Shown here piece after piece: positions 343 to 57,824 of a DNA stretch of 64,000 nt (positions are counted from its first letter, which is position 1; every line of letters starts with the position of its first letter). Origin of the DNA: Patescibacteria group bacterium. Its GTDB lineage: Bacteria; Patescibacteriota; Patescibacteriia; UBA2196. A program made the translations under genes and the position numbers. The notes under the pieces were generated by a model. It saw only the letters and a program-made list of their open reading frames with translations, was not told the origin of the DNA and searched no databases. The DNA lies in NCBI GenBank assembly GCA_028748975.1, contig JAQTPI010000001.1:64354-128353 (forward strand), written 5' to 3'.

Positions 343-1353
343 TTAAATTATAAATCGTTTGATTAGTATTGTTGCTTCTTTTTTATTTTTAATCCACTTT
401 ATTTTTTTGTTGCGCTTGAACCATGTCATCTGCCGTTTGGCAAATTGGTGAGTGTGAATTTTGATTAAATTTATTGTCTCTAGGTCAATCTTTTGGCCCG
501 GTTTGTTTTTTAAAAAATCAATAATTTCTTTATAGCCAATGGTTTGCAGTGGCGCGGTATTTTTTCCGTACGTTCGCATTATTTTTTTTGTCTCTTCCGC
601 CAAACCGTTTTTTATCATTTTTTCCACTCGCGCGTCAATGCGTTTATCTAAAATATTTTTTTGGAAAGTAACACCCAATTGCAAGTAATCAAAAAGCGGC
701 TTGTTTTTCTTTCTCAATTCAGAAAATTTATAACCAGCCAAACAAACTTCCAAAACGCGGTCCAAGCGCCGTGGATTTCTGACATCAACAAATTTCAGCG
801 CCGCTGGATCCAGTTTTTTTAATAATTTTATTTTTTCTGATGTACTTAACTTTTCTAATTTTTTTCTTGTTTTTTTATCAGGCCCAACCGCCGGAAAATC
901 CAAATTATCGGTAATAGCGGAAATATAAAGTCCGGTGCCGCCAACAAGAATCGGCAATTTTCCGCGTCTAATAATATCATTAATTTCTTTCAGTGCCAGT
1001 TTTTTATGTTTAGCCACATTAAATTCGGTATTAGGATTAATGATATTTATGAGGTGATAGGGAACGAAAAAGTTGTCATCCCGGGCCGTGACCCGGGATC
1101 TAGGAATCGTTTTTCTGGATCCCCGCTGGAGTTTACCCCGCACCACGATGCGGAGCGGGAATGACATCACAGATAAACCATATTCTGATAAATCTTTACC
1201 AGTCCCAATATCCATCCCTTTATATACTTGTCGTGAGTCCGCTGAAACGATTTCCCCATTAAATTTTCGCGCCAAAGCTACCGCCAATTTGGTTTTACCG
1301 GTGGCGGTGGGGCCGAGAATGACAATTAATTTTGGCAGTTTTTTCTTTGACAT
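343..1353 (-). CDS. miaA: tRNA dimethylallyltransferase (MiaA)
   Basis: N-terminal P-loop GPTATGKT and MiaA-like sequence throughout. Carries an in-frame ~90-bp GC-rich palindromic repeat insertion at 1075-1165. Confidence 0.85.
   Translation of the reverse strand: MSKKKLPKLIVILGPTATGKTKLAVALARKFNGEIVSADSRQVYKGMDIGTGKDLSEYGLSVMSFPLRIVVRGKLQRGSRKTIPRSRVTARDDNFFVPYHLINIINPNTEFNVAKHKKLALKEINDIIRRGKLPILVGGTGLYISAITDNLDFPAVGPDKKTRKKLEKLSTSEKIKLLKKLDPAALKFVDVRNPRRLDRVLEVCLAGYKFSELRKKNKPLFDYLQLGVTFQKNILDKRIDARVEKMIKNGLAEETKKIMRTYGKNTAPLQTIGYKEIIDFLKNKPGQKIDLETINLIKIHTHQFAKRQMTWFKRNKKIKWIKNKKEATILIKRFII
1075..1165. repeat. family R1 palindromic element (GTCATCCYGAG..GGATCT type), composite copy inside the miaA CDS
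   Basis: gtcatcccgggccgtgacccgggatctagg...gggaatgac. 90 bp, in-frame. Confidence 0.7.
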
Positions 1354-2421: not shown

Positions 2422-3789
2422 TTATTTTTCTAATTTTCCTTCCAAACTCCACGGCCCGGCCTTGATAATTTTAGTTTTAACAATTTTTCCTATCAAATTG
2501 TTGATTGTTGACTGCTTACTGTTGGCTGAAATTTTTATATCCTTAAAATTTCTCGTCTTACCAAAATATATAATATCATTGTTACTTTTATTGCTTTTAT
2601 TACTATTAATACTTTTATTCCTTTCAATTAATACTTCTATATTCTTACCAACCATCTTTTTATTATTTTCCAAAGCTGTCTTTTTCAAAATTTCATTTAA
2701 GGCCACGCGGCGCTGGGTTTTTTCTTCAGCCGAAATACTATCTTTCAGTTTGGCGGAAGCGGTGCCAGCGCGTGGAGAATATTCCGCCAAATAGGCCAGA
2801 TCAAATTTTATTGATTTCATGAGATTGGCGGTTTTTTGAAAGTCTTGCTTTGTTTCATTGGGAAAGCCCACAATAATGTCGGTACTAATGCTAATATTGC
2901 GAATAGAACGACGAATCTTGCGAATAAGATTCAAATATTTTTTGGAATCATACTTTCTATTCATCGCTTTCAAAATTTTATCCGAACCGGCCTGGAGCGG
3001 CAGGTGCAAGTAGGGGATGAGGTGCTGGCAATTTTTAAAACATTTTATCAAATCTCCCGACATATCTTTTGGGTGGGAGGTAATAAAACTTAACCAATAA
3101 TCTCCTGGAATAGAATTAACTAATTTTAATAATTGTGGAAAGTTCACTTTACTTTTTTGAAATTTGAACTTTGAAATTTTATTGGAAATTGGAAATTGGA
3201 AATTGGAAATTTGTGAAACATAACTATTCACATTCTGGCCCAATAATATAATTAACTTATATCCTTGAACAACTAATTTGTTCACCTCCGAAATTATTTC
3301 TTCGGCTGGTCGGGAAACTTCACGCCCACGCGTGAAAGGCACGACGCAGTAAGAACAGAAATTATTACAGCCAGTCATAATTGGAACATAGGCGATAAAT
3401 TTTGAATTATAGTTTGGTAAAATTGAGAAATAATTTATGTCTTTATTGTTAGTTGTTAATTGTTGGTTGTTAATTTTATTTAACCAATTATCTAAATTTT
3501 TAATATCTAAAATATAATCAGCGTGTTTTTCAAACTTATTTTTATCCGCTACCAAAACGCAGCCTGTTAAAATGATTTTAGCTTTTGGATTTTTTTTTCT
3601 GATGTCATCCAGTTTGCCCCAGACGCGGTTAACAGCTGTTTGCCGCACCGAACATAAATTTAAAATTACCAAATCCGCCGAAGCCAGATCCGCCGGTTGC
3701 AAATTATTTTTTTTAAGATAGCCGGCGATTCTTTCCGAATCCGACCAGTTCATCTGGCAGCCGTAAGTGATAATGTGATAAGTTTTCAT
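2422..3789 (-). CDS. miaB: tRNA-i6A37 methylthiotransferase, radical SAM (MiaB family)
   Basis: YGCQMN N-terminal motif plus radical-SAM and TRAM regions. Contains an in-frame low-complexity insertion derived from the ggaaatt tandem repeats at 3140-3230. Confidence 0.85.
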   Translation of the reverse strand: MKTYHIITYGCQMNWSDSERIAGYLKKNNLQPADLASADLVILNLCSVRQTAVNRVWGKLDDIRKKNPKAKIILTGCVLVADKNKFEKHADYILDIKNLDNWLNKINNQQLTTNNKDINYFSILPNYNSKFIAYVPIMTGCNNFCSYCVVPFTRGREVSRPAEEIISEVNKLVVQGYKLIILLGQNVNSYVSQISNFQFPISNKISKFKFQKSKVNFPQLLKLVNSIPGDYWLSFITSHPKDMSGDLIKCFKNCQHLIPYLHLPLQAGSDKILKAMNRKYDSKKYLNLIRKIRRSIRNISISTDIIVGFPNETKQDFQKTANLMKSIKFDLAYLAEYSPRAGTASAKLKDSISAEEKTQRRVALNEILKKTALENNKKMVGKNIEVLIERNKSINSNKSNKSNNDIIYFGKTRNFKDIKISANSKQSTINNLIGKIVKTKIIKAGPWSLEGKLEK

Positions 3790-8069: not shown

Positions 8070-8228
8070 ACGAGCGCGCCTATCGGCGAATACCTAATAA
8101 CAACCACCCCGAGCCGACTGCTGTCGGCTCACCCCTCCTTCGAAAGGAGGGGATAACCACGCTGCTATCCTCCCCTTTCGAAGGGGAGGTCTCCGACAGC
8201 AGTCGGAGGGAGGAGTTGTAATTATTCG
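8070..8228. repeat. family R3 composite GC-rich palindromic module (CCCCTCC-TTCGAA-GGAGGGG units plus a CGCCTATCGGCG box)
   Basis: cccctccttcgaaaggagggg and tcctcccctttcgaaggggagg are nested inside gagccgactgctgtcggctc ... ccgacagcagtcgg. Confidence 0.7.
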
Positions 8229-8784: not shown

Positions 8785-8835
8785 CTGACGAGATCCCTCG
8801 GCTCCTAACTTCTCTAAAAGGCCGCTCGGGATAAA
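8785..8835 (-). repeat. family R2 element (TTTATCCCGAGCGGCC..GAGCCGAGGGATCTCG), directly 3' of the dnaE stop
   Basis: Reverse complement of caatttatcccgagcggccttttagagaagttaggagccgagggatctcgtcag. Confidence 0.75.
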
Positions 8836-8842
8836 TTGCGGG

Positions 8843-12486: not shown

Positions 12487-12660
12487 ACCCCTCCCAAACC
12501 CTCCCCTTAGTAAGGGGAGGAGCTTACGATGAGCTCCCCTCCTTTATAAGGAGGGGGTTGGGGGAGGTATTTGTATATTCGCCGCTAGGCGCGTCGCCAT
12601 CTCCTCCTTAAGAAGGAGGAGACCAAGAGGAGGTTAACTCGCCGATAGGCGCATATAATT
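12487..12660. repeat. family R3 composite module
   Basis: ccctccccttagtaaggggagg, cccctcctttataaggaggggg, ctcctccttaagaaggaggag and aactcgccgataggcgcatataatt. Confidence 0.7.
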
Positions 12661-17522: not shown

Positions 17523-18014
17523 ATGCTTTCCATGCTAAAATTTGAGAAAAAAAATCACCAGGGCTTCACTCTCATTGAACTTTTGGTGATCATCGCCATC
17601 ATTGGCCTGCTCGCCGCCATTGGCCTGGTGGCCCTGCAAAACGCGCGCGAAAAATCTCACGATGTCAAAAGAAAAGATGATGCCAAGCAGCTTTCTGCCG
17701 CTTTAGGTTTATATTTTAATGGCGTTGGTAATGGCACCTATCCGACCCAAACCACTTTTGCCTGTCTCCCTGCCAGTTCTTTGGCTACGGATTTAATCAG
17801 CGGCGCTAAATCCATCATGAGCAATCTGCCCAGCGACCCCCTGATTGGTTGGAATACTGTCAGCACGGGTTGCTATGCCTATCGCGGCGGCGACCAGGAT
17901 TTTAAAATTATTATAGCTTTGGAAAACGATACCGCTTTAATGGCCAATGATGGCGGAGTGCTTAATAATCGTTATGAAATTTATACGCCCGGCGCGCAAA
18001 GTTGGCAACCGTAA
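17523..18014 (+). CDS. type IV pilin / pseudopilin (prepilin-type N-terminal cleavage/methylation domain)
   Basis: Leader ends ...NHQG followed by FTLIELLVIIAIIGLLAAIG. Confidence 0.8.
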   Translation: MLSMLKFEKKNHQGFTLIELLVIIAIIGLLAAIGLVALQNAREKSHDVKRKDDAKQLSAALGLYFNGVGNGTYPTQTTFACLPASSLATDLISGAKSIMSNLPSDPLIGWNTVSTGCYAYRGGDQDFKIIIALENDTALMANDGGVLNNRYEIYTPGAQSWQP

Positions 18015-19109: not shown

Positions 19110-19116
19110 CCAATAG

Positions 19117-19163
19117 TTTATCCCGAGCGGCCTTTTAGGGAAGTATTGAGCCGAGGGATCTCG
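19117..19163 (+). repeat. family R2 element, 8 nt after the DUF3048 gene stop
   Basis: gtttatcccgagcggccttttagggaagtattgagccgagggatctcg. Confidence 0.75.
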
Positions 19164-20198: not shown

Positions 20199-20232
20199 CA
20201 AAAACCTTAGCCACGAGCTAAGGTTTTTTTAT
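20199..20232. terminator. bidirectional intrinsic terminator
   Basis: aaaaaccttagc-cacgag-ctaaggttttttt lies between convergent genes. Confidence 0.7.
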
Positions 20233-21293
20233 ATTTTTATCACTGCCACTCGCCACTTCTTGGCCAAATCTTTCTTAAATTTCACATTTGCTTTGGGCAG
20301 GTGTTTTTTTATTAATTTTTCCAAAAGCGGTTTTTGAAATGGTAAAATTTCTAAAAATATTGTTAATTGTTTATTGTTTATTGTTAATTGTTTAATCTGT
20401 TTCAATAGTTTTTCATATAAAAATAATCCATTATTTTTTGCCACCAGTGCCGTGCGCGGTTCAAATTTTAATCCTTGATAATTCCGGCGGTAAATTTTTT
20501 CTGGTAAGTACGGTAAGTTGGCGGTAACAATAATTTTCATGTCATTTTGAAGCCCCGAAGGGGCTGATGGAATCTCAAGATCCCATCGGTCCGATTTTAT
20601 CGGACCTCGGGATGACAAAAGAAAATTAAGCAGGTCGCTTTTAATAAATCTTATTTTTTTAGTAAGTCCGTGCAACCGCGCGTTTTTTTTCGCCACGGCG
20701 AGCGCGCGCTCTGAAATATCAGTGGCGACAGCGTCAATTAACAGCCAACAATTAGCAACTAGCAAATTTTTTAGAATTGATATAATAAGACAACCACTTC
20801 CTGTGCCGACATCAATAATGATTATTTTTTGTTTTTTTGTCCCGAGTACTCGGGATTGTTTATTGTTAATTGTTAATTGATTAATTACTTCTTCCACCAT
20901 CATCTCCGTCTCCGGCCGGGGGATTAAAACATTTTTATTCACCCAGAAATCCAGCCCAAAAAATTCTTTCTGTCCTAAAATATACGCCACCGGCTCGTTT
21001 TTACTTCGCCGGGCAATAAATTTTTTATATTTTTTTTCTTGGGATTTAGTCAATTCAAGTTCCGGGTGAGCGTAGAGAAGAGATTTACCAATCGACGACC
21101 TCTCTCTATCTCTCCCCTTATTAAGGGGAGAGGGATGAACAACCCCCCCTCCTTTACAAGGAGAGGGTCGGGGGTGAGGTCGTTGGTTTAAAATATTTAC
21201 TAATAAAATTTCCGCGTCCAAACCCGCCGACTCAATTCCGGCTTCTTGTAATTTTTTAATAGCCCAATTTAAAATTTGACAGATTTTTGGCAT
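20229..21293 (-). CDS. prmC: release factor glutamine N5-methyltransferase (PrmC/HemK)
   Basis: DVGTGSGCL and NLPY(L) motifs, immediately downstream of prfA. Contains two in-frame palindromic repeat insertions (20541-20616 and 21099-21182) plus LTINNKQ tandem repeats. Confidence 0.8.
   Translation of the reverse strand: MPKICQILNWAIKKLQEAGIESAGLDAEILLVNILNQRPHPRPSPCKGGGVVHPSPLNKGRDRERSSIGKSLLYAHPELELTKSQEKKYKKFIARRSKNEPVAYILGQKEFFGLDFWVNKNVLIPRPETEMMVEEVINQLTINNKQSRVLGTKKQKIIIIDVGTGSGCLIISILKNLLVANCWLLIDAVATDISERALAVAKKNARLHGLTKKIRFIKSDLLNFLLSSRGPIKSDRWDLEIPSAPSGLQNDMKIIVTANLPYLPEKIYRRNYQGLKFEPRTALVAKNNGLFLYEKLLKQIKQLTINNKQLTIFLEILPFQKPLLEKLIKKHLPKANVKFKKDLAKKWRVAVIKI
20541..20616. repeat. 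family R1 palindromic element inside the prmC CDS
   Basis: gtcattttgaagccccgaaggggctg...cggacctcgggatgac. In-frame. Confidence 0.7.
21099..21182. repeat. family R3 module inside the prmC CDS
   Basis: ctctccccttattaaggggagag...ccccccctcctttacaaggagagggtcgggggtgagg. In-frame. Confidence 0.7.
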
Positions 21294-24945: not shown

Positions 24946-24953
24946 CTTTTTTA

Positions 24954-25004
24954 GTTTATCCCGAGCGGCCTTTAAGGAAGTTAGGAGCCGAGGGATCTCG
25001 TCAG
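24954..25004 (+). repeat. family R2 element, 9 nt after the tsf stop
   Basis: gtttatcccgagcggcctttaaggaagttaggagccgagggatctcgtcag. The inverted partner cgctcgagataaac at 25090-25104 makes a MITE-like unit. Confidence 0.75.
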
Positions 25005-30197: not shown

Positions 30198-30242
30198 CGA
30201 GATCCCTCGTCGTCCCGAAGCGCCGGGACTCCTCGGGATGAC
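30198..30242 (-). repeat. family R1 element
   Basis: cgagatccctcgtcgtcccgaagcgccgggactcctcgggatgac. Confidence 0.7.
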
Positions 30243-30257
30243 AATCACCTATGAATT

Positions 30258-30548
30258 ATGGACACTCTAACTTCCCACACCCTCCATCTCATAAAAAATT
30301 GTCCTGTTTGCAAGGCCAAGTTTGGCGAGGGGCAAATTAGCGTCGTGGAAAAAGATGAGGAAGGCAAAGCCACGGTTTTGTTAAGTTGTCAGAATTGTCA
30401 AAGCGCGCTTTTGGCGCGGGTGGTGGAAATGCCGTTTGGAATTTTAGGCACGGCCTCTTTGACTGACATTCAGGCGAGTGAAGTTAAAAAATTCGCGGCC
30501 GGTGGCAAAGTGACGTTTGATGATGTGCTGGATTTGTATGGAAAATAA
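30258..30548 (+). CDS. hypothetical zinc-ribbon protein
   Basis: CPVC...CQNC arrangement. Lies between grpE and dnaK. Confidence 0.4.
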   Translation: MDTLTSHTLHLIKNCPVCKAKFGEGQISVVEKDEEGKATVLLSCQNCQSALLARVVEMPFGILGTASLTDIQASEVKKFAAGGKVTFDDVLDLYGK

Positions 30549-30559
30549 TTTTTTTGGTT

Positions 30560-30596
30560 GTCATCCTGAGCGAAGCGAAGGATCCTGTGGCCGAAG
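30560..30596 (+). repeat. family R1 element
   Basis: gtcatcctgagcgaagcgaaggatcctgtggccgaag, followed by the taataaagatataaggatataaa module. Confidence 0.65.
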
Positions 30597-34513: not shown

Positions 34514-34694
34514 AAAAACCTCCTTTTGTTTGTTTTTCCTCCCAATATAAATTGTGCTTTTATCTTATCATTAATAATTAAATCCTGTCAAGCGGCAGAA
34601 AATAATATTTGTCATTCCGGCCCGAGAGCCGGAATCCAGAAATTGTTTCTCTGGATTCCCGCTTTCGCGGGAATGACAAAGAAAGAAAATTTTT

Positions 34695-34973
34695 ATGGAC
34701 AATCAAAATCAAATCCAAATTAAAGATCCTTTTGCTGGTGCCGAATATGCTAATGTGATGAACATTAATTCCAGTAAAGAAGAGTTTTTGTTGAACTTTT
34801 TTAATATTGCCGGTGCGAATGGCAGGGTAGTTGGTAAAATAATCGTCAGCCCCAGGCACTTAAAAAGAATGTCTGGCGTGTTAACTAAAGTATTAAAAGA
34901 TTATGAAGAAAAGTTTGGTAAACTTGAAGAAGCCAATGAACCAAATACGGAAATAGGTTTTAAAGCCGAATAA
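34695..34973 (+). CDS. hypothetical small protein
   Basis: 92-aa ORF between two repeat elements, upstream of dnaJ. Confidence 0.45.
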
Positions 34974-34976
34974 AAC

Positions 34977-35022
34977 TGACGAGATCCCACCACCCCACAA
35001 ATGTGGGGTTCGGGATGACAAC
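34977..35022 (-). repeat. family R1 element
   Basis: ctgacgagatcccaccaccccacaaatgtggggttcgggatgacaa. Confidence 0.7.
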
Positions 35023-35025
35023 CAT

Positions 35026-36168
35026 ATGAGTAATAAAAATTATTACGACACTCTCGGCGTTTCCAAAACCGCCACATCAGACGAAATAAAGAAGGCCTTC
35101 AGAAAGCTTGCTCACGAACACCACCCCGACAAAAAAGGCGGCAACGAGGCCAAGTTTAAAGAAATTAACGAGGCCTATCAGGTTTTGGGCAATGAGGAAA
35201 AAAGAAAACAATACGACCAGTTTGGCCAAACTTTTAGTAATGGCGCTGGTGGATTTAATGCAGGCGGATTTAACGGCCAAGGATTTAATTGGCAGGATTT
35301 TGCGCGTCAAGCTGGCGGACAAGGAAATTTTGGCGGGCAAAATTTTGATTTTGATTTGGGCGATATTTTTGGCGATTTTTTTTCCGCCCGAGGCGGATCC
35401 GCCTTTGGCGGAGGTGGGAGACATAAACGTGGCCAACAAAGAAGCGGAGAAGACATTGAAGTCCAAATAAACATTGGTTTTCGTGAAGCGGTTTTTGGCG
35501 CGGAAAAAATTATTTCTTTAGAGCGCCAAGATGTTTGTGAAAAGTGTAATGGTAAAGGACACGAAGCTGGCGTGAAAATTATTACTTGTCCCGAGTGTAA
35601 AGGTGTGGGCCAAGTTCGCCAGGAACAGCGCACAATTTTTGGCGTGTTTGCTTCCGTGGGCGTCTGCCCAACTTGCGCGGGCGTTGGCAAAAAGCCGGAA
35701 AAGTTTTGTTCTAAATGTCATGGCGCTGGCCGAACCAAAAATAAAAAAGAAATTAAAATTGAAATTCCAGCCGGGATTGATGAAGGCCAAAGCATTAAAA
35801 TTTCCAACGCTGGCAACGCGGGCGAAAAGGGGAGCGCTGCCGGTGATTTATATATTTCTTTTCAAATTCGCCCTGATAAAATTTTCACGCGCGAAGGCGA
35901 GAATATTTTGACTAAAATTGAAATAAATATCGCGCAGGCGGCGCTTGGTGATAAAATAGAAGTGGAAACTCTGGACGGAATTGTCGAAATGAAAATTCCC
36001 GAGGGCACGCAATCAGGCAAAATTTTTATTTTGAAAGACAGAGGCGTGCCGATTTTAAACAGCCATGGCAGGGGGGACCAGTTAGTGGAAGTAGTGGTAA
36101 AAATTCCAACAAAATTATCGCGCAAAGAAAAGCAGTTGCTGGAAGAATTGAAAAATGAGTGGCGGTAG
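35026..36168 (+). CDS. dnaJ: chaperone DnaJ
   Basis: J-domain with HPD, a G/F-rich linker and four CxxCxGxG zinc-finger repeats. Confidence 0.9.
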
Positions 36169-36174
36169 TTTGTA

Positions 36175-36220
36175 GTTTATCCCGAGCGACCTCGTAGGGA
36201 AGTATTGAGCCGAGGGATCT
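36175..36220 (+). repeat. family R2 element, 7 nt after the dnaJ stop
   Basis: gtttatcccgagcgacctcgtagggaagtattgagccgagggatct. Confidence 0.75.
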
Positions 36221-40022: not shown

Positions 40023-40045
40023 TTGTTAGATTGTTGAATTGTTAA

Positions 40046-40170
40046 ACAACCACCCCGGCTCGGTCTGTTGACCTCGCCAACCCCTCCTTCGAAAGGAGGG
40101 GATATTGGTCGCTATCCTCCCCTTTCGAAGGGGAGGTGTTCCGCCGCAGCGGAACGGAGGGGTTGTAATA
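40046..40170. repeat. family R3 composite module
   Basis: Same architecture as 8070-8228: cccctccttcgaaaggagggg...cctcccctttcgaaggggagg flanked by ccgc..gcgg arms. Confidence 0.7.
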
Positions 40171-40202
40171 ATTGAACAATTTAGCAATTTAGCAATTAAA
40201 TA

Positions 40203-42743
40203 ATGCCAAATTATTTACCCTCATCTCCCTTGGAACCAAACCTATTAAGCAACCCATCCTTTGCCGTCTTTTTATTTTTACTCGGCATTCTCGTCCTAAT
40301 TTTTGTGGCGCTTTTAATTTACCGCAATTATTTGCGGCGGCACTATAAAATCCCGGCCAAATATCAGCCGGCGGTGCTTTTAATTACCGTGCCGAAAGAA
40401 GCGGCTGGCGATAAGAATCAGTCTGGTAATCTGACCGAAACCATGCGTTCGCAAATCGCCTGGGCCGAAGGATTTTTAACTCAGCTCGGTTCCATCAAGC
40501 CGCAAAAAGGCTTTAAGGCCTGGCTCTATGGCCGTCATGATAATTTGGCTCTGGAAATTGTGGCGCATCAAAAATTAATTTCTTTTTACGTGGTGGTGCC
40601 AGAGTATCTTAAGCAATTTCTGGAACAGCAGCTGCTGGCCCAGTACCCGAGCGCCCAAGTGGAAGAAGCAGAGGATTATAATATCTTCACTCCCAAATCT
40701 TTTGTCGCCTCGGCCAATCTGCAATTGGGTAAAAATTCCATGTTCCCGATTAAAACTTATCGTGAATTTGATAATGACCCCCTGAACGCCATCACCAATG
40801 TCTTAAGCAAACTGGAAGACACCGCTGGCGCCGTGGTCCAAATTTTAATTCGTCCGGCGCCGAGAAATTGGCACGATTATGGCTTGAAAGTTGTCACTGC
40901 TATGCAGCAGGGCAAACCTCTGAAAAAAGTTTTGAAAGCGCAGGAAGCGGACATTTTTAGCGCGCTCAGTAAAACTTACAATTTTTTTGCCGGTCCTGCG
41001 GCTAAAAAGGAAGACAATCAAATGGCGCCGGGGGTTTACCGCCTTTCGCCCATGGAAGAAGAAATGATTAAAAAAATTCAGGCCAAAAGTTCCAAAGCTG
41101 GTTTGCAATCCAACATTCGCGTGGTGGTTTCCTCGGAAAATTATCAGGCGCCGGATATCTACCTTCATAATATTTTAAATTCTTTTGGGCAGTACAACAT
41201 CACTGAATATGGCAATAATTTCAAAATCAGTAAAGCCAAAAGCAATGACCGCATTGTTTCGGAATCCATCCACCGTATTTTTGATAATAACCGTTCTTTC
41301 ATCTTGAACACGGAAGAGTTGGCATCGCTCTATCATTTTCCTCTGCCCACTTGCGAAACTCCCAATATTCGCTGGCTTTTGGCGCGTAAAGCCGCTCCGC
41401 CAATTAATATTCCGCCCACAGGAATTGTTTTAGGAAAAAATAATTTTCGCGGGGTGGAAACTTTAATCAGAATGAAAGAAGAAGATCGCATGCGCCATTT
41501 CTATATTATTGGTATGACTGGTACTGGTAAATCCGTTTTGATGGAAGAAATGGCCAAACAAGACATTGCTGAAGGCCGCGGTGTTTGTTTTCTTGACCCG
41601 CATGGCACGGCCATTGACCAAATTTTGCCTTGCATCCCAGAAAATCGTCAAAAAGATGTGGTCTATTTTGACCCCTCCGACGTGGAAATGCCAATTGGTT
41701 TAAATATGCTGGAAGCCAAGACCCAGCAGGAAATGGATTTTGCCGCTTCGGAAATGATTACGATTTTTTATAAACTTCTGCCCGACCCGTCCATGGGCGG
41801 TCCCATGTTTGAACACTACATGAGAAATGCTTTGCTTCTTTTGATGGCCGACCAGGCTGACCCGGGTACTTTGGTGGAATTGGGCCGCGTTTTTACTGAT
41901 GATGAATATCGCGCGGAAAAATTAAAACACACTCGTGATTTGTTGGTGCGTGACTTTTGGGAAAGAGAATATCCGGCCTCCCAGCGGGGGAGCATGGCTT
42001 CCGATATGCTGTCCTATGTTGTTTCCAAAACTGGCCGTTTTGTGGAAAATGAAATGATGAGAAACATCATTGGCCAGTCACGTTCCGGCTTCAATTTCCG
42101 CCAAGTCATGGATGAGGGCAAAATTCTTCTAGTCAATTTGTCCAAAGGAAAAATCGGCGAAATGAATAGTAACTTACTGGGTTTAATTATTGTTTCCAAA
42201 TTGCAAATGGCCGCCATGGGCCGTGCTGATTTGCCGGAAAATCAAAGAAAAGATTTTCTACTCTACATTGATGAGTTCCAAAATTATACCACCGATTCCA
42301 TGTCCACCATTTTGGCTGAAGCCAGAAAATATCGCCTCGGTCTAATTATGGCGCATCAATACATCGGCCAGTTGGTGAAGGGCCAGGACACTTCCATCCG
42401 TGACGCGGTTTTCGGCAACGTCGGCACGCTCGCTGTTTTCCGCATTGGCGCCGAAGACGCGGAATTTTTGGCCAAACAATACGCCCCGGTCTTTAATGAG
42501 TATGATTTAATCAATATTGAAAAATTTAACGCTTATGTTAGGCTATTAATAGATAACCAGGCCAGCCGGCCGTTTAATATGGCCACCCTGCCGCCCAGTT
42601 TTGGTAATCCGCAAACAGCAACTTCTATTATTAATAATTCCCGCCAAACCTATGGCCACTCCAAAGCGGAAGTGGAAGCGGAAATTGTGAGAAGGTCAAA
42701 GATAGGAGAGCTTGGCAAGGAAATGGAAGAAGAAGAAAAATAG
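40203..42743 (+). CDS. membrane-anchored P-loop ATPase of the FtsK/HerA superfamily (TraG/VirD4/DUF87-like)
   Basis: N-terminal transmembrane helix, a ~400-aa unknown domain, then Walker A GMTGTGKS and Walker B LLYIDEFQ followed by AHQ. Confidence 0.65.
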   Translation: MPNYLPSSPLEPNLLSNPSFAVFLFLLGILVLIFVALLIYRNYLRRHYKIPAKYQPAVLLITVPKEAAGDKNQSGNLTETMRSQIAWAEGFLTQLGSIKPQKGFKAWLYGRHDNLALEIVAHQKLISFYVVVPEYLKQFLEQQLLAQYPSAQVEEAEDYNIFTPKSFVASANLQLGKNSMFPIKTYREFDNDPLNAITNVLSKLEDTAGAVVQILIRPAPRNWHDYGLKVVTAMQQGKPLKKVLKAQEADIFSALSKTYNFFAGPAAKKEDNQMAPGVYRLSPMEEEMIKKIQAKSSKAGLQSNIRVVVSSENYQAPDIYLHNILNSFGQYNITEYGNNFKISKAKSNDRIVSESIHRIFDNNRSFILNTEELASLYHFPLPTCETPNIRWLLARKAAPPINIPPTGIVLGKNNFRGVETLIRMKEEDRMRHFYIIGMTGTGKSVLMEEMAKQDIAEGRGVCFLDPHGTAIDQILPCIPENRQKDVVYFDPSDVEMPIGLNMLEAKTQQEMDFAASEMITIFYKLLPDPSMGGPMFEHYMRNALLLLMADQADPGTLVELGRVFTDDEYRAEKLKHTRDLLVRDFWEREYPASQRGSMASDMLSYVVSKTGRFVENEMMRNIIGQSRSGFNFRQVMDEGKILLVNLSKGKIGEMNSNLLGLIIVSKLQMAAMGRADLPENQRKDFLLYIDEFQNYTTDSMSTILAEARKYRLGLIMAHQYIGQLVKGQDTSIRDAVFGNVGTLAVFRIGAEDAEFLAKQYAPVFNEYDLINIEKFNAYVRLLIDNQASRPFNMATLPPSFGNPQTATSIINNSRQTYGHSKAEVEAEIVRRSKIGELGKEMEEEEK

Positions 42744-51705: not shown

Positions 51706-51725
51706 TGTTTTTTGTTTTTTTAGCA

Positions 51726-51773
51726 GTTTATCCCGAGCGGCCTCCTAGGGAATTTAGGAGTCGAGGGATCTCG
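51726..51773 (+). repeat. family R2 element, 21 nt after the small ORF stop
   Basis: gtttatcccgagcggcctcctagggaatttaggagtcgagggatctcg. Confidence 0.7.
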
Positions 51774-55691: not shown

Positions 55692-57593
55692 ATGAAGTCA
55701 AAAGATTTGCGTCGCAAATACATTGAATTTTTTAAAGCCAAAGGTCACGTCGAAATTCCTTCGGCTTCTTTACTTCCGGAAAATGATCCTTCCGTGCTTT
55801 TTACCACTGCCGGCATGAGCCCCTTGGTGCCGTTTTTGCTTGGTGAAAAACACCCGGCTGGCGCGCGTTTGGTCAATTCCCAAAAATGCATCCGCACCGG
55901 CGACATTGACGAAGTCGGCGATGGTTTTCACCACACCTTTTTTGAAATGCTCGGCCACTGGTCATTTGATGATTATTGGAAAGATGAAGCGCTGAAAATG
56001 AGTTTTGAATTTGTGACCAAAGAACTTGGCCTGGATAAAAAATATCTGGCCGTTTCTGTTTTTGAAGGCGACAAAAACGCGCCGCGCGACGATGAATCCA
56101 TTGAGGTTTGGAAAAAGTTGGGTATTGATGAAAAAAGAATAAAACCGCTACCCAAAGACAGTAATTGGTGGGAGCCAACAGGCGATAATGGCCCCTGCGG
56201 CCCCTGTACTGAAATGTTCTATTGGACCGGCGACAAAAAATTCGTGCCCGATGTTTTTGACCCGGCCGATAAAAATTGGGTAGAAATCGGCAATGATGTT
56301 TTGATGCAGTATGAAAAAGTGGGGGAGAATAAATATAAAATTGCCAAGCAAAAAAATATTGATAACGGCACCGGCTTGGAGCGTTTGCTGGCCGTGATGA
56401 ATGGTTTGGATGACGACTACCGCACTGATTTATTTTGGCCGATAATACAGAAAATTGAAGAGCTTTCTGGTAAAACCTACGACCTCACCCCCGACCCTCT
56501 CCTTGTAAAGGAGAGGGGGACCAGCGACACTGTGCGTTCTATGCGCATCATCGCCGACCACCTGCGTGCCGCTACATTTATTATGGGCGATAATCTTGGT
56601 GTGGCGTCATCTAACTTGGATCAGGGTTATGTCGTGCGCAAACTCATTCGCCGCGCTATTAGACACGGTAAATTAATTGGAATTGATAAAAACTTCTGCT
56701 CCGAAATCGCGGAAATAATTATCAATTTAATGAAAGGTGTCTATTCGGAGTTAGAAAAGAATAAAGAATTTGTGATTTCTAATATGAAAGAGGAGGAAGA
56801 AAAATTTAGAAAAACGTTAGAAAAAGGATTGAAGGTTTTGACCACTCATATGAGAGCAAGAGATAAGGGAGATATAATAAATCAAGAAAATATTCCAAAT
56901 TGTTCACCGGTAGACGGAGTCAAGGGATATGTTCCACCGGTAATAACGGGGGATTGGTTATTTGATATTTATCAGAAACTTGGTTTTCCTCTGGAATTAT
57001 CATTAGAGGAAATACAAAAGGAACAAAAAATTAATAAATTTGATTTAGAGAGAATTAAAAATGAGTTTGAAGAAGAGATGAAAAAACACCAAGATCTTTC
57101 CCGCACTGCTTCGGCCGGGAAATTCAAAGGTGGCCTTGCCAATCAAAGCGAAATGGCGATAAAATATCACACTGCCACGCACCTGACTCTGGCGGCATTA
57201 CGAAAAGTTTTAGGCGAACATGTTTTCCAGCGCGGATCAAATATCACCGACGAAAGAATGCGCCTGGATTTTTCTCATGGCGAAAAAATGACTCCGGAAC
57301 AAATCAAGCAAGTGGAAAACATTGTTAATGAACAAATCCAAAAAAACCTGCCCGTGGAATGCGAAGAAATGAATGTGGACGAGGCAAAAAATTCCGGCGC
57401 CATGGGAATTTTTGAAAACAAATATGGTGAAAGAGTAAAAGTTTATTCTGTCGGCGCGGGCGATGTTTGTTTTTCCAAAGAAATCTGCGGCGGGCCGCAC
57501 GTGGAAAATACCAGCGAGCTTGGCCACTTTAAAATTTTGAAAGAAGAAGCGAGTTCCGCTGGTGTACGTAGAATAAAAGCAGTTCTCTCCTAG
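55692..57593 (+). CDS. alaS: alanyl-tRNA synthetase, truncated form lacking the C-terminal C-Ala domain
   Basis: Class II catalytic core plus the editing domain (HTATHLTLAAL...CGGPH). Only 633 aa. Contains an in-frame palindromic repeat at 56487-56523 and a Lys/Glu-rich insertion. Confidence 0.88.
   Translation: MKSKDLRRKYIEFFKAKGHVEIPSASLLPENDPSVLFTTAGMSPLVPFLLGEKHPAGARLVNSQKCIRTGDIDEVGDGFHHTFFEMLGHWSFDDYWKDEALKMSFEFVTKELGLDKKYLAVSVFEGDKNAPRDDESIEVWKKLGIDEKRIKPLPKDSNWWEPTGDNGPCGPCTEMFYWTGDKKFVPDVFDPADKNWVEIGNDVLMQYEKVGENKYKIAKQKNIDNGTGLERLLAVMNGLDDDYRTDLFWPIIQKIEELSGKTYDLTPDPLLVKERGTSDTVRSMRIIADHLRAATFIMGDNLGVASSNLDQGYVVRKLIRRAIRHGKLIGIDKNFCSEIAEIIINLMKGVYSELEKNKEFVISNMKEEEEKFRKTLEKGLKVLTTHMRARDKGDIINQENIPNCSPVDGVKGYVPPVITGDWLFDIYQKLGFPLELSLEEIQKEQKINKFDLERIKNEFEEEMKKHQDLSRTASAGKFKGGLANQSEMAIKYHTATHLTLAALRKVLGEHVFQRGSNITDERMRLDFSHGEKMTPEQIKQVENIVNEQIQKNLPVECEEMNVDEAKNSGAMGIFENKYGERVKVYSVGAGDVCFSKEICGGPHVENTSELGHFKILKEEASSAGVRRIKAVLS
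56487..56523. repeat. family R3 module inside the alaS CDS
   Basis: cccccgaccctctccttgtaaaggagagggggacc. Near-identical to 21147-21178 in the opposite orientation. Confidence 0.7.
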
Positions 57594-57594
57594 T

Positions 57595-57638
57595 GTCATC
57601 CTGACGACCCCGAGGCCTCGGGGGAGGAAGGATCTCGT
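57595..57638 (+). repeat. family R1 element, 2 nt after the alaS stop
   Basis: gtcatcctgacgaccccgaggcctcgggggaggaaggatctcgt. Confidence 0.75.
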
Positions 57639-57639
57639 A

Positions 57640-57765
57640 AATATCCCCTCCTTTCGAAGGAGGGGTGCGAGCGAGAGCGAGCGGGGTGGTTGTGGTAGAA
57701 TATTTTTACAACCCCTCCGTTCCGCTGCGGCGGAACACCTCCCCTTCGAAAGGGGAGGATAACGA
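57640..57765. repeat. family R3 composite module
   Basis: atcccctcctttcgaaggaggggtg...cctccccttcgaaaggggagg with ccgttccgctgcggcggaac. Confidence 0.7.
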
Positions 57766-57808
57766 CGAGATCCCTCGTCGTCCCGCGCCCGTGACTCCTC
57801 GGGATGAC
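57765..57808 (-). repeat. family R1 element
   Basis: acgagatccctcgtcgtcccgcgcccgtgactcctcgggatgac. Confidence 0.7.
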
Positions 57809-57824
57809 ACCCCACTAAAACTTT

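Follow-up and report, generated by a model that had tools for sequence, protein, structure and literature searches.

The window analysed here, a 64-kb stretch of contig JAQTPI010000001.1 (assembly GCA_028748975.1) from a Patescibacteria group bacterium, contains miaA, an essential-looking tRNA-modification gene encoding tRNA dimethylallyltransferase, and within its reading frame a G+C-rich palindromic element composed of two hairpin modules (Table 1). The gene was assigned to IPPT/MiaA by Pfam (E=1e-63) and a search with phmmer matched its product to the solved structures 2qgn, 3d3q and 2zm5; the P-loop GPTxxGKT, the DSxQ motif, the IPPT domain and the MiaA fold are all present. An initial annotation of this DNA had placed a 90-bp G+C-rich element in the miaA frame, and the element does lie there, at positions 1075–1165 in an uninterrupted open reading frame (ORF), but its length is 91 nt.

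Table 1. Position and layout of miaA, its palindromic element and related repeats (window positions unless another locus is named)
Feature	Position	Strand	Description
miaA (tRNA dimethylallyltransferase)	343..1353	-	intact 336-aa ORF hosting the element; from ORF list and Pfam
Core element	1075..1165	-	91-nt doublet, two hairpin modules tail to tail; terminal inverted repeats GTCATYCC / GGRATGAC; residues 64-93 = SFPLRIVVRGKLQRGSRKTIPRSRVTARDD
Module A	1075..1100	+	GTCATCCCGGG-CCGTGA-CCCGGGATC (GTCAT-CCCGGG-CCGTGA-CCCGGG-ATC); perfect 8-bp stem 1078-1085 / 1092-1099
Spacer between modules	1101..1117	.	TAGGAATCGTTTTTCTG; partly self-complementary with module ends
Module B	1118..1165	-	GTCATTCCCGC-[28-nt loop]-GCGGGGATC; SRM-type, 4-nt loop replaced by 28-nt loop
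Nested expansion in module B loop	1127..1154	-	+24 nt relative to canonical 4-nt loop; own small hairpin CCGCA..TGCGG
12 extra nt, mRNA-5' side of element	1166..1177	-	TTTATCTGTGAT; missing from empty allele
15 extra nt, mRNA-3' side of element	1060..1074	-	AACTTTTTCGTTCCC, read N F F V P; common to other filled alleles; replaces AAAAATTAAA of empty allele
Second doublet copy	34611..34677	+	67 nt, intergenic, 18 nt upstream of DUF3467 gene; right-hand module 34651-34678 (-)
Doublet in prmC	20541..20616	-	in frame; two-module TGTCAT..ATGACA layout, long-stem variant
Second-family copies in ORFs	prmC 21096-21182; alaS ~56480-56524		in frame
Second-family further sites	8093-8222, 12488-12627, 40043-40171, 57640-57823		include several intergenic clusters
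AT-rich repeats in MiaA loop	alleles P0002/P0004/P0012 (L008, L003)		in frame; RFKIYDLRFKKNKIKK, KLTTNDKQQTTKN
SRM-type module in N-terminal tail of FtsZ-like protein	L122 4113-4183		in frame; Patescibacteria-like contig
SRM-type modules in miaB of relatives	L003 1875-1898; L006 1298-1342		in frame; C-terminal region and N-domain loop

When aligned to the solved MiaA proteins by phmmer, the window protein splits into two blocks (query 7–57 and 88–321) leaving ~30 residues unmatched, at a position where the solved structures have a loop of about 9–10 residues. The distance between the anchors DIGTGK and YHL is likewise about 9–10 residues in most of the 120 homologues containing both, compared with 45 in the window MiaA. 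The closest orthologues (P0003 and P0005, ~80% identical) lack the segment and read DLKEY-GKIKYHL, and the empty site can be seen in the DNA of two relatives (L001 and L007) as GAATATGG|AAAAATTAAA|TATCAT (alignment A2). The segment is an insertion relative to its orthologues, delimited by the kind of alignment that the initial annotation had suggested. At this site the window allele has 118 nt, made up of the 91-nt core and 12 + 15 flanking nt, against 10 nt in the empty alleles, so that the net increase is 108 nt (36 codons). The frame is kept, as had been claimed, but the 30 codons given for the insertion apply to the core only, which consists of 1 base (the G of ATG codon 63) and 30 full codons.

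On the + strand the element reads GTCATCCCGGGCCGTGACCCGGGATCTAGGAATCGTTTTTCTGGATCCCCGCTGGAGTTTACCCCGCACCACGATGCGGAGCGGGAATGAC. Its G+C content is 61.5%, compared with 35.4% in the remainder of miaA, and it folds better than shuffled sequences both as RNA (z = -2.8) and as DNA (z = -2.5, both strands), with three hairpins on the mRNA-sense strand. Orthologous copies in two relatives (L005 and L006) have the canonical 67-nt doublet, GTCATCCCGGCGAAWGCCGGGATCCAGAAA..N..TGGATTCCGGRTCAAGYCCGGAATGAC, in which the module B position is occupied by GTCATTCCCGC-GAAG-GCGGGAATC and an equivalent spacer, CCAGAAA..N..TGG, separates the modules. Compared with this form the window copy is 24 nt longer inside one loop, the copy in P0006 is 21 nt longer in the spacer, and both have 9 additional nt at one flank.

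These differences in length (+24, +21 and +9 nt), all inside the element region, are independent of one another and each is a multiple of three, while the frame in use is free of stop codons in each of the five miaA element variants, so that the frame is kept in every variant; taken together this argues for translation and not skipping. Judged by this conservation of the frame, the insert is probably translated as extra MiaA residues. Stop-free frames are only modestly more frequent in the composites than in random AT-rich DNA, hence the openness of the frame is by itself insufficient to explain why the insertion is tolerated. The insert peptide, LSV...NFF, is basic (7 Arg, 2 Lys and 2 Asp), and the basic loop described in the initial annotation was quoted correctly; junction-spanning peptides predicted from the ORF would include TIPR/SRVTAR-DDNFFVPYHLINIINPNTEFNVAK.

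Outside the insert the ratio of nonsynonymous to synonymous substitution rates (dN/dS) of miaA, calculated against six orthologues, is 0.10–0.17, and the window MiaA retains 18 of the 18 invariant columns of a 104-sequence family alignment. The AlphaFold2 model obtained with a 104-sequence alignment has a mean predicted local distance difference test (pLDDT) score of 90.2 and a predicted template-modelling (TM) score of 0.84, and when compared with the E. coli MiaA-tRNA complexes 3foz/2zm5 it gives a target-normalised TM score of 0.80–0.83 and a root-mean-square deviation of 3.3–3.6 Å. Only for residues ~61–90 does the pLDDT drop to about 48–50, and this segment is modelled without secondary structure. 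Given the purifying selection, the confident fold and the retained invariant columns, the miaA of the window is predicted to be functional despite the insert, which according to the model forms a disordered surface excursion. The modelling, one of the checks proposed in the initial annotation, shows a low-confidence, structure-free segment that leaves a confident MiaA fold, and the gene, a single open ORF under purifying selection, is not split; all of the checks proposed there supported its reading of the element.

Repeats of a related kind, together with the Ssn nucleases that act on them, were described in Nat Commun in 2025, among them SsnA of Neisseria meningitidis (PMC11893778). According to that description, the Neisseria NTS repeat is CGTCATTCCCGCGMAVGCGGGAATCYRG, while the degenerate Ssn-related motif (SRM) reads HGTCWY N0-2 YYVSBRH N0-5 WNVSBRG N0-2 RNCYNB; SsnA is a 94-aa single-domain GIY-YIG protein which binds and nicks the NTS hairpin only as single-stranded DNA (ssDNA) and limits the integration of transforming DNA carrying the repeat; the repeats flank genes in an NTS-gene-NTS layout, and Rickettsia is listed among the genomes richest in SRMs (PMC11893778). 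In the window the strict SRM motif has two matches (1074–1103 and 34651–34678), where 0.08 would be expected from shuffled sequences. The first corresponds to module A with one flanking 5' base and three 3' bases, and the second is one mismatch from the Neisseria NTS. A relaxed module, GTCATYCY..GGRATY, occurs 13 times in the window against 0.42 ± 0.64 in dinucleotide shuffles, whereas module B fits the SRM motif only when its 28-nt loop is allowed. A search of the window with exact halves of the element, permitting up to 3 mismatches, found nothing but the element itself, and the family was revealed only by the conserved GTCAT..GGATC frame; no Rfam family matched, the search giving only one chance hit below threshold (13 bits, where the gathering score is 40). 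From these sequence features the element is assigned to the NTS/SRM class of hairpin repeats.

The layout of two inverted modules and a spacer was found in the three window doublets (1075–1165, 34611–34677 and 20541–20616) and in 90 composites from other loci. A scan for the doublet pattern gave 26 stretches from a viral collection and at least 120 metagenomic ones, the GC fraction of the loci being 0.32–0.73, so the element type is widely distributed; most doublets elsewhere are intergenic and copies occur in both orientations. Among AT-rich loci the convincing in-gene doublets are those of miaA and one read as part of an FtsZ-like protein, in its N-terminal tail, several other apparent in-ORF doublets look non-coding, and the reading through of ORFs in G+C-rich metagenomes is uninformative. 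The window MiaB has no SRM-type modules at the positions that carry them in the MiaB of relatives, and in a genome scan for miaA relatives the matches listed were all of at most 50% identity and carried few modules.

The terminal inverted repeats, the two-hairpin inverted doublet, which is also that of REPINs (PMC3337134), and the dispersed, mostly intergenic copies would also fit an ordinary miniature inverted-repeat transposable element (MITE) or REPIN, moved in trans by a transposase of an insertion sequence (IS) or of the RAYT/IS200-IS605 Y1 type and not by an Ssn-type GIY-YIG enzyme; a likeness to IS200/IS605-REP systems is noted in the Ssn paper as well (PMC11893778). Such an origin is nevertheless unlikely, since no target-site duplication was found in the flanks of 88 composites, which merely extend the palindrome (TY|GTCAT..ATGAC|RA), the window holds no transposase or RAYT gene, and the GTCAT head is that of NTS/SRM repeats, with one copy a single mismatch from the Neisseria NTS. 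The REP heads recognised by RAYTs differ from GTCAT. A classical MITE was rejected because the terminal inverted repeats are present but the target-site duplication is not.

When comparing the MiaA loop among the 120 homologues, SRM-type peptides (SFPRRRES.., SSPRKRGS.., ..RGND/AGMT) were found in at least 12, including lineages only 52–60% identical, and many other homologues of the set have AT-rich repeat peptides in the same loop. Over 2,308 aligned positions two nearly identical strains, L002 and L003, show 127 differences, only 3 of which fall outside a tract of ~250 bp around the site; here one allele has an SRM doublet and the other an AT-rich repeat. Similarly, an allele filled by an SRM composite (L235) and an empty one (L236) are 98–99% identical over miaA-gatB apart from a similar divergent tract. 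The loop of MiaA is a recurrent insertion hot spot, and since the difference is confined to a short divergent tract in pairs that are otherwise 98–99.9% identical, recombination over short tracts exchanges alleles at the loop between near-identical strains. In the window allele itself the mosaic signal is weak (identity 0.80–0.84 against 0.64–0.76 just downstream of the insert) and was not relied on.

The dN/dS of the insert is 0.43–0.53, 3–4 times that of the miaA core. When P0007 and P0008 (L006 and L005) are compared, the element has a synonymous rate (dS) of 0.12 and the remainder of the gene one of 1.69, with a dN/dS of 0.43 in the element; low dS together with relaxed dN/dS points to constraint or homogenisation at the level of the nucleotides and not of the peptide. 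The small difference in the element suggests that its nucleotides are constrained, that other copies have converted it or that it was transferred recently. The same figures bear on the idea that selection has favoured the loop as a functional extension of MiaA, for instance a basic tRNA-binding arm, in which the palindromic nature of the DNA is incidental or secondary. MiaA binds tRNA, with 9 Arg/Lys and 2 Asp the peptide is strongly basic, and inserts recur here in many lineages, but the peptide differs between variants and evolves with the relaxed dN/dS given above, near-identical strains hold a G+C-rich element, an AT-rich repeat or nothing at the site, the segment is modelled with low pLDDT and without secondary structure, and the same DNA is found in intergenic regions, all of which makes a selected extension quite improbable.

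Covariation was analysed in 50 distinct modules taken from doublet-bearing loci in public collections (alignment A4). G3, T4, C5, A6 and T7 are invariant and C26, which follows the stem, is at least 90% conserved. Within the stem 92% of the cells are paired, whereas shuffles reach 81% and slid controls no more than 49%, and compensatory double changes were seen at 4 of the 8 stem pairs, in 51 cells against 14.9 ± 2.7 in shuffles (none of 500 shuffles reached 51). The hairpin structure rather than the stem sequence is conserved, as would be expected for a hairpin recognised by a protein. The covarying stems, the three hairpins on the mRNA-sense strand with their folding score, and the conservation of the element at the nucleotide level might also be taken as signs that the hairpins are retained because they act as RNA within the mRNA, in pausing, stability or processing. 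This is highly improbable, as the copies occur in both orientations and mostly outside genes, the stem pairs are almost all Watson-Crick so that both strands fold equally well, no Rfam family matches, and NTS, the only homologous repeat that has been tested experimentally, is recognised as ssDNA and not as RNA (PMC11893778).

The NCBI gene call for miaA (P0001, 274 aa, beginning MSFPLRIV) starts at an ATG at 1165–1167 (1167–1165 on the - strand) that arises where the element joins the gene, and so leaves out the first 62 residues with the P-loop. The start has been wrongly placed inside the element and the repeat has in this way corrupted the public annotation of miaA. Although this call, and the G+C-rich inserts of yeast mitochondria that are bypassed during translation, could be cited in favour of an untranslated insert (ribosome bypass or removal from the transcript) or of a miaA pseudogene with a product from Met63, such readings are hardly credible, as the full ORF is open, every length variant is in frame and without stop codons, the upstream 62 codons hold the conserved P-loop and DSRQ motif with 76–89% DNA identity to orthologues, and a product from Met63 would lack the nucleotide-binding loop.

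We therefore favour, as the likely course of events, that a non-coding dispersed SRM/NTS hairpin doublet landed in miaA and is now translated and tolerated as a loop. The doublet consists of two modules of the form GTCATYCC - 8-bp stem - loop - stem - GGRATC, inverted around a short spacer in a REPIN-like manner. Its insertion would be tolerated because it lies in a surface connection, between a short helix (residues 55–58) and the strand with the YHL motif, because all length changes are multiples of three and because no stop codon interrupts the G+C-rich sequence in the frame that is read. MiaA would thereby gain a disordered basic loop of about 36 residues while keeping its fold and catalytic residues, and the insert peptide would be a passenger without selected function. 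An Ssn-like GIY-YIG nuclease acting on ssDNA hairpins may generate and maintain the repeats, which would spread between strains mainly via homologous recombination, possibly after DNA uptake.

Indirect support for such a nuclease comes from a candidate Ssn homologue encoded in another Patescibacteria metagenome-assembled genome (L050 19841–20191, - strand) as a 98-aa single-domain GIY-YIG protein (PF01541). The gene is located 9 kb from the miaA of that genome and has GTCAY-headed hairpins on both sides; its product has more than 1,100 small homologues across phyla and no match in NCBIfam or PDB. In the window, two small ORFs are bracketed by GTCAT modules in a repeat-gene-repeat layout resembling that of ssnA (regions 30201–30584 and 34611–35019), but neither of them, 30258..30548 (no family) nor 34695..34973 (DUF3467), is GIY-YIG. 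The window also encodes a type IV pilin-like protein with an N-terminal methylation motif (17523..18014) and an 846-aa TraG/VirD4/TrwB-like coupling ATPase (40203..42743), proteins with possible functions in DNA uptake or transfer, which here occur together with repeats of a type that limits transformation in Neisseria; they are compatible with DNA uptake but prove nothing.

Several points weigh against the course of events favoured above. No GIY-YIG, RAYT or transposase gene was found in the 64-kb window, and a GIY-YIG protein is nearby in none of the 146 doublet-bearing loci, phmmer over all loci having found only that of L050; for this reason the proposal that an Ssn-like enzyme serves the repeats in this organism is made by analogy. 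The strict SRM motif is not matched by module B, nor by 11 of the 13 relaxed modules, the model does not explain the extra codons beside the element in filled alleles, and translation of the insert is inferred from the conserved frame. Furthermore, the miaA copies of close relatives share site, orientation and phase and may therefore descend from a single old insertion instead of reflecting ongoing mobility.

The initial annotation had stated that the same happens twice in prmC and once in alaS. Both genes (prmC, 20229..21293, and alaS, 55692..57593) are indeed intact ORFs with palindromic inserts opposite gaps in solved homologues, but only the insert at 20541–20616 in prmC, which adds about 21 residues compared with solved HemK structures, is of the same family. 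The other two, at 21096–21182 in prmC and ~56480–56524 in alaS, belong to a second G+C-rich two-hairpin family distinct from the GTCAT family, with terminal inverted repeats CGACCTC..GAGGTCG and CCCTCTCCTT-NNNN-AAGGAGAGGG hairpins. The alaS ORF (633 aa, without the C-terminal C-Ala region) ends with a stop at 57593, at the start of a 246-nt palindromic cluster (57578–57823) that may be the source of the stop codon or the cause of a truncation.

Short AT-rich repeats were also seen in frame, LTINNKQ twice in PrmC and KSINSNKSNKSNN in MiaB (2422..3789). In dnaJ (35026..36168) a G+C palindrome, CCGCCCGAGGCGGATCCGCCTTTGGCGGAGG, at 35370–35438 is read as a 10-residue peptide, and the near-identical peptide SAHGGSASGG is found in a relative's MiaA (P0008, L005), in a different loop. 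A further repeat family of ~48 nt (TTTATCCCGAGCGGCC..GAGCCGAGGGATCT), apparently situated downstream of genes, was identified at 19114–19161, 24951–24998, 36173–36220, 51724–51771 and, on the - strand, 8788–8839.

In-frame palindromic repeats were formerly thought to be largely a Rickettsia curiosity, and the same behaviour is now seen in a Patescibacteria genome, for a repeat whose cognate class of enzymes has been known only since 2025. Now that there is a candidate nuclease, that its ssDNA substrate is defined and that filled and empty alleles occur naturally, it becomes possible to test how such inserts arise and spread. Housekeeping enzymes of these minimal genomes carry loops with rapid turnover by recombination, and such repeats corrupt gene calls and inflate the apparent protein novelty of candidate-phyla genomes. 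A wider proposal, which we put forward as speculative and doubtful, is that protein-coding palindromes of reduced-genome bacteria derive in general from hairpin repeats served by Ssn-type GIY-YIG nucleases, so that one ssDNA-hairpin system would have produced both the doublets of Patescibacteria and the Rickettsia palindromic elements (RPEs). If this were true, intragenic copies would mark sites where ssDNA derived from uptake is cut and short mosaic tracts are exchanged, loops such as that of MiaA would become hypervariable cassettes, and the 25-year-old puzzle of the RPEs would gain a candidate enzyme. Our literature search found no paper linking RPEs with GIY-YIG nucleases and no report of such in-frame inserts in Patescibacteria.

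Compared with known systems, the repeats of the window resemble the NTS/SRM repeats in their oriented GTCAT head, 8-bp G+C-rich stem (ATTCCCGC/GCGGGAAT and compensated variants), short loop and C after the stem, and in being dispersed and over-represented, here within 64 kb. They differ from the published Ssn repeats in lying inside coding sequence and in forming inverted doublets; the available part of the Ssn description makes no mention of intragenic copies, inverted doublets or Patescibacteria (PMC11893778). In contrast to the Neisseria Ssn system no ssn gene was seen in the window.

REPINs are doublets of REP sequences mobilised by RAYT (Y1) transposases and are by definition extragenic (PMC3337134). 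With these the element shares two inverted repeats and a spacer, as well as a non-autonomous nature, presumably served by a single-copy enzyme acting on ssDNA hairpins, while its head motif is a different one, its candidate enzyme is of another class (GIY-YIG), copies are found in ORFs and the window has no RAYT gene. Intragenic MITEs (ERIC, BOX, Correia and cyanobacterial) are likewise small, structured and bear terminal inverted repeats, with occasional in-frame fusions (PMC10969869), but the present repeats have no related IS and no target-site duplication, and their hallmark is a hairpin with compensatory stem changes instead of a conserved full-length sequence.

The RPEs, to which the initial annotation had compared the element, are palindromic repeats of about 100–150 bp in Rickettsia-specific families, each encoding a conserved peptide (Ogata et al. 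2000 and 2002, reviewed in PMC10969869). As with RPEs, the inserts lie in frame in housekeeping genes that are unrelated to each other, in a bacterium with a reduced genome, are compatible with the protein fold and occur in intergenic regions too; unlike RPEs, which were here compared by description only, the doublet has 67–91 nt and its peptide is not conserved, differing between the window, P0006 and P0007/8. The comparison is thus apt for behaviour, in-frame and fold-compatible, but not for membership, the sequence placing the family with NTS/SRM and not with RPE. What is new here is an Ssn-type hairpin-repeat doublet, assigned as such by its sequence, that behaves like an RPE in a new phylum.

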